A stretch of 64,000 nucleotides of DNA from a virus. The stretch covers positions 1 through 64,000 of IMG/VR virus record IMGVR_UViG_3300045971_000895. One strand, given 5' to 3'. Position numbers and translations under genes: made by a program. Below, in pieces: positions 36,729 through 37,126 of this stretch (position 1 is its first letter; every line of letters starts with the position of its first letter). The notes below the pieces were generated by a model, which did no database searches, was not told the DNA's origin, and saw nothing but the letters and a program-made list of their open reading frames with translations.

Positions 36729-36775
36729 GAGGCCGAGCCCATCTTGCAGTGGGCTCGGCCTCACTTCTTCTGGAG
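36729..36775. terminator. convergent, possibly bidirectional, intrinsic terminator
   Basis: Perfect 13-14-bp stem gaggccgagccca/tgggctcggcctc with an 8-nt loop, then a UCACUUCUUCU tract. It lies between convergent genes. Confidence 0.55.
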
Positions 36776-37126
36776 AAGGGTGCGGATGGCGTCGAGGAGT
36801 TGTCGCTTCATGAAGGGCTTGGACATGTACTCGTCCACGCCTGCTGCTCGAAGCTTCTTCTCAGACCCTGTGGTGCCGGCCAGCCCGATGATGGGGATGC
36901 TGGTGATGTGGCCTGGCCCTTCGCGAACAGCTTTGACGAACTCGTCGCCGTGCATCTTCGTCATGTAGAAGTCGGTGATGATGAGGTCCGGTTGAACCTC
37001 TCTCACCGCGCTGATGGCGTCGAGTCCATCACTGGCCAAGTCGACGTCGTAGCCTTCCTCAACGAGGATCGACTTCAGCATCGACCGGATGAGGTCATTG
37101 TCGTCGACCAGCAGGATGCGGGGCAT
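36761..37126 (-). CDS. stand-alone CheY-like response-regulator receiver domain
   Basis: LLVDDND; phospho-acceptor context LIITDFYM; conserved T in IIGLAGTT and K in YMSKPF. Trimmed to ATG 37126. Confidence 0.65.
   Translation of the reverse strand: MPRILLVDDNDLIRSMLKSILVEEGYDVDLASDGLDAISAVREVQPDLIITDFYMTKMHGDEFVKAVREGPGHITSIPIIGLAGTTGSEKKLRAAGVDEYMSKPFMKRQLLDAIRTLLQKK

Follow-up and report, generated by a model that had tools for sequence, protein, structure and literature searches.

The 64-kb window (the whole stretch of 64,000 nucleotides analyzed here) encodes a single-domain member of the receiver (CheY-like) PF00072 superfamily in which the conserved active-site Thr/Ser is replaced by Ala, as it is in every other member of its family. 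The gene lies directly after a class II ribonucleotide reductase gene in a subclade of large phages, and its conservation points to a maintained function. We tentatively propose, at a probability of roughly 0.4, that the protein may compete for a host kinase or stoichiometrically trap its phosphoryl groups.

Receiver fold and active site

The receiver gene and the codon at its substituted catalytic position are located as follows:
36761..37126, minus strand: stand-alone receiver-fold gene, 121 aa (PF00072 match, AlphaFold, Foldseek, dN/dS)
36878..36880, minus strand: Ala83 codon, at the conserved Thr/Ser position corresponding to CheY T87 (alignments, model, family invariance)

The reading frame runs from an ATG at 37126 to a TGA at 36761–36763 (121 codons plus stop), and the gene calls of the relatives all begin at the Met equivalent to 37126. 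A longer, 159-aa ORF starting at 37240 runs into nrdJ and was hence rejected; in the relative L003 the extension is interrupted by an in-frame stop 39 nt ahead of the ATG, and GTA stands in place of the alternative GTG. The ribosome-binding site of the receiver gene is weaker than those of the neighboring genes.

The open reading frame and an end-to-end PF00072 match bear out the 121-aa stand-alone receiver of the initial annotation, which had suggested the Pfam Response_reg profile as a check: the match covers profile positions 1–111 of 111 at 78.9 bits (E = 3.9e-22), well above the gathering cutoff of 30.2 bits. Searches of the PDB with phmmer matched dozens of solved receivers at 27–36% identity, including VicR-like 8fk2 (E = 6.8e-17), DivK 1m5t (E = 2.6e-16), MtrA and Vibrio CheY4. 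An AlphaFold model built from the nine-member family alignment has a mean pLDDT of 93.7 and five strands and five helices in canonical (β-α)5 order: β1 (3–7), α1 (11–23), β2 (27–31), α2 (34–44), β3 (48–52), α3 (60–68), β4 (79–83), α4 (86–95), β5 (99–102) and α5 (107–119). Foldseek superimposed this model on CheY4, RR468, DivK, Spo0F and others with TM-scores of 0.86–0.92 and returned 614 PDB matches at E ≤ 1e-3; all 50 of the 50 matches listed are receiver domains. Scores against the single-domain families of NCBIfam stayed below their cutoffs (DivK-like NF045717, 66.6 versus 160; CheY_Halo, 58.4 versus 200; CpdR NF046022, 55.1 versus 180), and the protein is therefore not an orthologue of CheY, DivK or CpdR. 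Like CheY, DivK, Spo0F and CpdR, it is ~120 aa long, adopts the (β-α)5 fold without an output domain and retains the acidic pair, phospho-acceptor Asp, Lys and aromatic switch residue; unlike them, it carries Ala in place of Thr/Ser, is phage-encoded and has no kinase or che/div genes nearby.

Within the active site, the acidic pair D8/D9 follows β1 and corresponds to CheY D12/D13, and K103-P104 follows β5 and corresponds to CheY K109-P110; both pairs are invariant across the family. The aromatic switch residue is present as Y100 (CheY Y106). The initial annotation had staked its reading on a conserved Asp in alignment with CheY, and the phospho-acceptor D52, at the end of β3, does align with CheY D57. 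It had further credited the protein with all hallmark residues, which holds for the DD pair, D52 and K103 but not for the Thr, whose place is taken by the invariant Ala83.

Several lines of evidence place Ala83 at this position. Three phmmer alignments to solved receivers set it against the Ser or Thr of VicR, DivK and MtrA, two MAFFT alignments (one with CheY, the other of 100 sequences with CheY and DivK) set it opposite CheY T87, and in the AlphaFold model it is the C-terminal residue of β4. The surrounding motif reads I-P-I-I-G-L-A83-G-T, in which G81-L82-A83-G84-T85 is invariant, and Ala83 itself is retained in all ~10 family members across 47–100% identity; the nearest non-family receivers of the MAFFT set (identity ≤40%) have Thr there. 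T85 occupies the T+2 position and N-caps α4, and is probably what had been taken for the conserved Thr. The T+1 position is Gly84, a small and likewise invariant residue. Caulobacter-type receivers, considered as a second group with Ala at T, proved to be an alignment artefact, as their motif LLASA puts Ser at T.

A 2025 perspective in J Bacteriol (PMC12632262) defines as a pseudo-receiver any receiver without one of the five catalytic residues, counts several percent of ~2 million PF00072 domains in this class, gives Ala as a common substitute at the T position, and notes that changes at DD, T or K need not abolish phosphorylation. The phage protein is a pseudo-receiver under this strict definition because its Thr, one of the five, is Ala. 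It resembles the bacterial pseudo-receivers described there in being recognized by PF00072, in lacking one of the five residues through the commonest change at T, in being a putative orphan and in its distinctive conservation in the β3-α3 and β4-α4 loops. Unlike them, it retains the other four residues together with the small T+1 residue, and it is stand-alone and viral. Since these residues are retained, phosphorylation of the protein stays plausible. The corresponding CheY mutant, T87A, was reportedly found by Appleby and Bourret in 1998 to be phosphorylated efficiently by CheA, to autodephosphorylate more slowly and to signal poorly.

Genomic context and phage origin

The surroundings of the receiver gene contain the following features:
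37174..39285, minus strand: class II (adenosylcobalamin-dependent, monomeric RTPR-type) ribonucleotide reductase gene, nrdJ (Pfam, NCBIfam)
39545..39590, minus strand: strong hairpin between an upstream 192-aa gene and nrdJ (-41 kcal/mol, z -6.8)
36728..36763, either strand: hairpin with a 14-bp perfect stem over the receiver stop codon, between convergent genes (free energy, z, relatives)
36701..36715, minus strand: conserved element GGCCGGGGACGGTCC just after the hairpin, folding into another small stem-loop (loop GGGA)
36381..36692, plus strand: convergent gene for a 103-aa CxxC protein, its 3' end facing the receiver across the hairpin
50434-51297: sigma-like gene at the end of a virion-type block

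The gene upstream on the same strand, 47 nt away, is indeed the nrdJ beside which the receiver had been placed. Its product matches Pfam RNR_Alpha, RNR-II_ins_dom and Ribonuc_red_lgC and scores 458.5 bits against TIGR02505 (cutoff 340), identifying an RTPR-type enzyme. The receiver thus sits beside a gene of nucleotide metabolism of the early/middle type. On the other side, the convergent CxxC gene is kept in all relatives, and its product has no match in Pfam, PHROG or NCBIfam.

The hairpin between the convergent genes is the strongest of only four with perfect stems of at least 10 bp in the 64-kb window. Its stem comprises 15 pairs counting one G·U (10 of the 15 GC) and its loop 6–8 nt; on either strand the predicted free energy is -35 to -36 kcal/mol (z -5.5 to -5.8), and none of 200 shuffled sequences was as stable. 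The perfect stem reported earlier thus stands, with its span corrected from 36729..36775 to 36728..36763. Hairpins occur at the same place in L003, L041, L007 and L008, each sequence folding singly, with stems that differ in sequence (GAGGCCGAGCCCA in the window, GAGGGCTCCCGG in L007, AGGCCCGCTGG in L008) and a loop, CUGCAA(GA), that is kept among the relatives. Automatic alignment yields three pairs with compensatory changes, a count in which indels lead to covariation being underestimated. A T-rich tail, CTTCTTCT, follows the hairpin on the plus strand only (plus-strand sequence CUUCUUCU); the minus strand, which carries the receiver, has no U-tract and continues as GGGGCUGG. The hairpin is probably a bidirectional terminator. 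In the proposal of a strong convergent terminator, the conserved hairpin between convergent genes is retained, but the receiver strand lacks the U-tract. In the small downstream element, the core GGCCGGGGACG is invariant in five lineages, and no further copies of the element were found elsewhere in the 64-kb window.

Because strong hairpins bracket the pair, we infer that nrdJ and the receiver form a two-gene transcription unit with the hairpin at 39545..39590 as its 5' boundary. No sigma-70-type promoter was recognized upstream of nrdJ or of the receiver gene. An Rfam scan of the 64-kb window matched no known RNA family and hence gave no riboswitch upstream of nrdJ.

Potential signaling partners were sought in the window and ~9–10 kb on each flank, together ~83 kb, from a genome that measures at least 198 kb. 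No HisKA, HATPase_c, Hpt, CheA/W/Z or further two-component protein was found in this region, and no che genes in the 64-kb window; over this range, the absence of a histidine kinase or Hpt protein agrees with the orphan label of the initial annotation. A GGDEF protein of 243 aa with two transmembrane segments and intact GGDEF and RxxD motifs is encoded ~8 kb left of the window and is ~80% conserved in a 153-kb relative. The phage thus has several signaling genes, namely those for the receiver, the GGDEF protein and the sigma-like protein.

The DNA carrying the receiver is that of a phage on several independent grounds, in keeping with the phage-borne origin first assigned to it: the IMG/VR copy, an Arash-like virion block, a Baseplate_J protein and HNH endonucleases. 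Metagenomic contigs of 16, 109 and up to 198 kb encode the identical receiver protein, and a 79%-identical copy lies on a 153-kb IMG/VR viral contig (IMGVR_UViG_3300045747_000694). In gene order, the block at 40355-51297 parallels the virion structural proteins gp4–gp10 of Salmonella phage Arash; it runs through genes for proteins of 1153, 67, 479 and 995 aa and further genes to the sigma-like protein at its end, and the 479-aa protein has direct but weak similarity to Arash gp6. A 1499-aa Baseplate_J protein is encoded 4.4 kb past the right end of the window. The gene content of the window includes several HNH endonucleases, DNA methyltransferases, a polynucleotide kinase, an ATP-dependent ligase, a helicase and Cpn10, as well as an AAA ATPase of PHROG 8638 with relatives in Rhizobium, Aeromonas and Mycobacterium phages; NrdJ and ThyX of the relatives contain inteins. 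A megablast search with 15 kb around the receiver found no match among 50,697 phage records.

Distribution and selection across the family

A search of 5.8 billion proteins recovered nine clusters at 47–100% identity, followed by a sharp fall to ≤38%, and a metagenome scan added one further family member, L041, at 64% identity. The ~10 relatives obtained by following up the suggested survey of related phages all lie on syntenic large-phage contigs of up to 198 kb. Among the family members with enough flanking sequence, six lineages (window/L001, L003, L041, L007, L008 and L005) carry the receiver directly after nrdJ within a collinear replication module, the gap between the two genes being kept at 36–50 nt while the receivers range over 47–100% identity. 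All family members found belong to a GC-rich subclade of large phages with contractile tails. Across 185,579 bacterial and archaeal species, each represented by one genome, the best match was 39% over partial length, and no prophage copy came to light. In a family-profile search of 1.84 billion representative proteins, the best 150 of 1.39 million matches were multi-receiver proteins of 428–2,435 aa, giving no nearest cellular source.

With tblastn against known phages, the receiver matched 180 records, none reaching 40% identity. Several of these are evidently bacterial contigs misfiled as phage (with annotated cheA, cusR or creB genes, or Salmonella enterica records) and many are unannotated fragments, and for this reason they are uninformative about true phage relatives. 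More broadly, many receiver matches in phage databases are bacterial contigs labeled as phage.

Alignment of the family identified 33 invariant columns, including D8, D9, N10, T51, D52, Y54, M55, G81-L82-A83-G84-T85, S88, E89, Y100, K103 and P104. Column identity reaches 87–100% in the β1-α1 loop (DDN), β3 (ITD), β4 (IxGLA) and the β4-α4 loop (GT) and is ~50% in helices α2 and α5. Conservation is thus concentrated on the active-site face and on α4-β5, where T85, S88, E89, L92, A95 and Y100 are invariant. The α1 positions that normally set kinase specificity differ between lineages. In the subclade to which the window belongs, neither the Pro at D+4 nor the Asp of the MDG motif is retained (TDFYMTKMHG).

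Pairwise dN/dS values of the receiver are 0.21 (window versus L003), 0.27 (window versus L041) and 0.31 (L003 versus L041), which shows that the gene is under purifying selection and functional. The receiver nevertheless diverges faster than the adjacent ligase (79/47/52/53% versus 92/69/66/58% identity). A distant relative with 52% GC, L128 (NrdJ 61% and ligase 49% identical), keeps nrdJ and the convergent downstream genes and has four unrelated ORFs in the receiver's slot, and L005 has an extra unrelated gene, for a membrane HExxH protein, after the receiver. With unrelated genes occupying it in both phages, the position following nrdJ is a slot for cargo; one subclade uses it for the receiver, which makes that gene accessory rather than an obligate partner of the reductase.

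The protein matches phrog_731 (E = 8.6e-26), and structure matches in BFVD reach TM-scores of 0.87–0.88, but at only 19–30% identity to phage entries. Catalogued phage proteins such as PHROG 731, the 149-aa A0A6C0R1B8 of Alteromonas phage vB_AmeM_PT11-V22 and CheY-like proteins of uncultured Caudovirales are likewise receiver-domain proteins; unlike them, the present family is marked by its nrdJ context and the Ala at T. The divergent receiver cREC of jumbo phages is linked to genes for NAD+/ADP-ribose or cyclic-nucleotide processing (Iyer et al. 2021, PMC7824862). Common to cREC and the window's receiver are the fold, the occurrence in large phages, the conserved Asp residues and a position never beside a histidine kinase. 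Unlike cREC, the window's protein is a classical PF00072 domain at 79 bits with RTPR, ligase and helicase genes as neighbors; the sole cREC-named viral structure among its matches is a weak one (TM 0.69, 16% identity, E = 1e-3), and the window's protein is not the divergent NAD+-linked cREC. Stand-alone receivers are therefore already known from phage catalogues; what is notable here is the invariant Thr-to-Ala change combined with a clean, phage-only distribution.

Candidate roles during infection

Two-component systems are the main sensory wiring of bacteria. To our knowledge, very little has been learned about how phages interfere with them; unrelated small proteins account for the few cases known. 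An early protein of Pseudomonas phage LSL4, PIT4, which attaches to histidine-kinase domains from several two-component systems of its host (PMC10714779), is a precedent for phages targeting this wiring and hence for a host-kinase reading of the receiver. The likeness concerns the proposed role only; PIT4 is not described as a receiver.

Because the Thr is replaced by Ala, a kinase-binding decoy or phosphate trap is the more likely role when set against a normal switch. As read from the alignments, the substitution would speak against both a catalytic sink that cycles fast and a normal phospho-switch, and would suit a competitor for the kinase, a stoichiometric trap or a binder that acts independently of phosphorylation. 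The invariance of D8, D9, D52, K103 and the Gly at T+1 over 47–100% identity shows selection on the active-site face; given that such selection preserves the metal/phosphoryl pocket, phosphoryl chemistry or kinase docking is probably still in use.

As a competitor or trap, the receiver would be made together with nucleotide-metabolism genes during infection and would use the usual α1/active-site face to dock on at least one histidine kinase or phosphotransfer protein of the host. It would probably accept the phosphoryl group, since the phosphorylation chemistry is largely intact, and without the Thr hydroxyl it would release this group slowly and couple poorly to the output surface. Competition for the kinase or trapping of the phosphoryl group would withhold the signal from the host's own response regulator, and a receiver with no switch output of its own could thereby damp a host stress, motility or developmental response during infection. 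The absence of a histidine kinase or Hpt protein from the phage DNA examined counts in favor of a host-kinase competitor or trap, as does the accessory character seen in the replaced slot of L128. A slow-dephosphorylating acceptor, however, is a poor catalytic sink and would therefore need high expression, which counts against a trap, as do the weak ribosome-binding site and the variable α1 specificity positions. The invariant Y100, T85, S88 and E89 on α4-β5 suggest an output-side partner, so that an effector would fit at least as well as a pure decoy.

That partner-binding face is central to a second explanation, possible but on balance unlikely, in which the protein is a phosphorylation-independent pseudo-receiver, held in one fixed conformation and binding a host or phage protein through α4-β5. 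Its acidic pocket would then hold only Mg2+ or a ligand, and its targets might include a protease adaptor site (compare CpdR/RssB), a sigma factor or a polarity factor. The missing T residue places the protein within the pseudo-receiver definition, and such proteins are typically orphans that are not under Asp-phosphorylation control (PMC12632262). The lack of a kinase nearby and the six invariant α4-β5 residues listed above point the same way, and the subclade's loss of the D+4 Pro and the MDG Asp is a drift seen in pseudo-receivers. The persistence of D8, D9, D52, K103 and the T+1 Gly over deep divergence is nevertheless hard to reconcile with a pocket that performs no phosphoryl or metal chemistry; among pseudo-receivers as a whole, ~80% have a non-acidic DD2, and D, T and K are each down to ~65% (PMC12632262).

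The receiver could also feed into the phage's own program, with acetyl phosphate or a host kinase phosphorylating it and the phosphorylated form regulating a phage target, an arrangement we consider improbable. Candidate targets would be the sigma-like factor (50434-51297) and the membrane diguanylate cyclase, the latter pairing amounting to a PleD-like REC and GGDEF split in two. Both candidates are encoded by the same phage, the GGDEF motifs are intact, the receiver and the GGDEF gene are each ~80% identical in the 153-kb relative, and the α4-β5 face is conserved. Yet the GGDEF gene lies ~45 kb and the sigma-like gene 13 kb from the receiver, both in other transcription units; without the Thr, the phospho-dependent output required by this scheme would be weaker, and the co-occurrence was looked at in two close genomes only.

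Very unlikely is a partnership with the reductase, for example as a phospho-dependent regulator of dNTP synthesis, for which we know of no precedent in the form of RNR control by a receiver. The constant nrdJ-then-receiver order and short gap in six lineages and the hairpins bracketing the pair would suit such a role, but the whole region is collinear in these phages, which deprives the adjacency of specific weight, and L128 keeps nrdJ with four unrelated ORFs in place of the receiver while the slot of L005 holds an additional unrelated gene. Docking of thioredoxin, the RNR reductant, was considered and rejected, as the published response-regulator interface is formed by the OmpR linker and C-terminal hairpin, not by the receiver domain. 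Finally, a decaying, functionless passenger acquired from a host can practically be dismissed: such a passenger would fit an accessory gene that is restricted in distribution, has a weak ribosome-binding site and encodes a protein short of one catalytic residue, but no lineage has a broken reading frame, dN/dS is 0.21–0.31, 33 columns including the active site are invariant, and the model is confident (pLDDT 93.7).

Extending the competitor or trap reading, we consider it conceivable, though doubtful, that a 'kinase-trap' receiver has become fixed in one clade of large phages; it would take the phosphoryl group from a host histidine kinase, would have lost the Thr needed for release and output, and would silence a specific host two-component pathway, possibly a trigger of defense, dormancy or motility, perhaps together with a phage diguanylate cyclase that reprograms second-messenger signaling.

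The receiver is small and soluble-looking, which makes it a tractable lead on phage interference with two-component signaling; it is a useful lead rather than a surprise because phage catalogues already list receiver proteins. Conserved among its phages, with four of the five catalytic residues and Ala fixed at the remaining position, the receiver offers a natural experiment on pseudo-receiver mechanism, and it bears on the question of whether phages mimic response regulators to blunt host signaling.

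Cargo slot after nrdJ and the hairpin element

What lies between nrdJ and the CxxC gene convergent with it is variable cargo; in the window this slot is occupied by the receiver. In the more distant relative L128, the receiver is replaced by four unrelated ORFs of 93, 95, 307 and 71 aa (3570-5239), and the three longer ones (93, 95 and 307 aa) gave no Pfam match when scanned. L005, a relative with the receiver, encodes an extra 159-aa membrane-anchored protein with an HExxH (metalloprotease) motif at 10372-10851, overlapping the receiver's stop.

The loop of the terminator between receiver and CxxC gene, CUGCAA(GA), and the adjoining GGCCGGGGACG element (window 36701-36763) are sequence-identical at equivalent sites in four relatives (L003, L041, L007 and L008), while the hairpin stems in these same relatives have fully diverged. 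Such conservation of loop and element exceeds the need of a plain terminator. No further copy of the element occurs elsewhere within the window. A second clean terminator-like hairpin was found immediately past the DUF3150 gene, followed by UUCCUU:

Window 23234-23259: terminator-like hairpin, 11-bp GC-rich stem, GCAA loop, -29.7 kcal/mol

Conserved genes and mobile elements

The following genes lie in the window to the left of the receiver:

Window 2152-3096 (-): 314-aa protein, PHROG transposase family phrog_10081 (E 1.8e-16)
Window 5201-7840 (-): 879-aa protein; major-vault-protein domains MVP_shoulder (Pfam, E 6.8e-28) and Vault_3 (E 1.5e-09)
Window 8630-9118 and 31500-32216: stand-alone HNH endonucleases
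Window 16034-16459 (+): GroES/Cpn10-like co-chaperonin (Pfam Cpn10, E 2.1e-06)
Window 23265-27173 (-): conserved cluster of AAA ATPase, DUF1257, 184-aa protein and DUF3150
Window 30289-31701 (-): 470-aa protein with YpsA/SLOG and DprA-like (DNA_processg_A) domains

The AAA ATPase/DUF1257/DUF3150 cluster is common to all related phages; in relatives DUF2997 also occurs. Its ATPase matches PHROG 8638 (E 1e-127) and has homologues at 33-37% identity in Rhizobium, Agrobacterium, Aeromonas and Mycobacterium phages. The 470-aa protein, encoded a few genes away from the receiver, is likewise kept in all relatives; ligands of SLOG domains are nucleotide-derived. A vault-like protein is unusual in a phage, and the 879-aa protein has no match in PHROG. 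In L008, NrdJ contains an intein bearing a LAGLIDADG endonuclease and ThyX an intein bearing an HNH domain (1203-4391 and 8819-10879); the NrdJ encoded in the window is intein-free.

Virion-type block and putative tail-fibre module

Two large blocks of genes lie to the right of the receiver:

Window 40355-51297 (+): large-protein block (1153, 67, 479, 995, 217, 207 and 177 aa)
Window 52352-62836 (+), continuing in L125 (reaching beyond the right end) 11485-21488: putative tail-fibre module

None of the listed proteins of the first block has a family match. The gene order of the block, which closes with a 287-aa sigma-factor-like protein, equals that of virion structural proteins gp4-gp10 of Salmonella phage Arash (181 kb), a set that includes an RpoS-like sigma factor. 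Sequence similarity to the Arash block is detectable only for the 479-aa protein (30% over 154 aa).

In the second block, a collagen-repeat protein of 1533 aa (13 Collagen repeats, E 1.4e-70) precedes a 1061-aa protein that fuses family 2 glycosyltransferase, methyltransferase and group 1 glycosyltransferase domains; then come another glycosyltransferase and, after it, a B12-binding radical-SAM enzyme. Next are baseplate genes, including a 1499-aa Baseplate_J protein just beyond the window. The make-up of this region suggests a tail-fibre module that is modified and possibly glycosylated.

A second signalling gene

The same contig encodes, some 8 kb to the left of the window's first position, a diguanylate cyclase that is also present at L132 3001-3729:

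L123 (reaching beyond the left end) 19683-20414 (-): diguanylate cyclase, 243 aa (Pfam GGDEF, E 1.2e-37)

The protein has two transmembrane segments at its N-terminus and intact GGDEF and RxxD (RVVD) motifs, and its conservation is 80% in the 153-kb IMG/VR relative. The phage that carries the receiver has, in this diguanylate cyclase, a second host-signalling gene.
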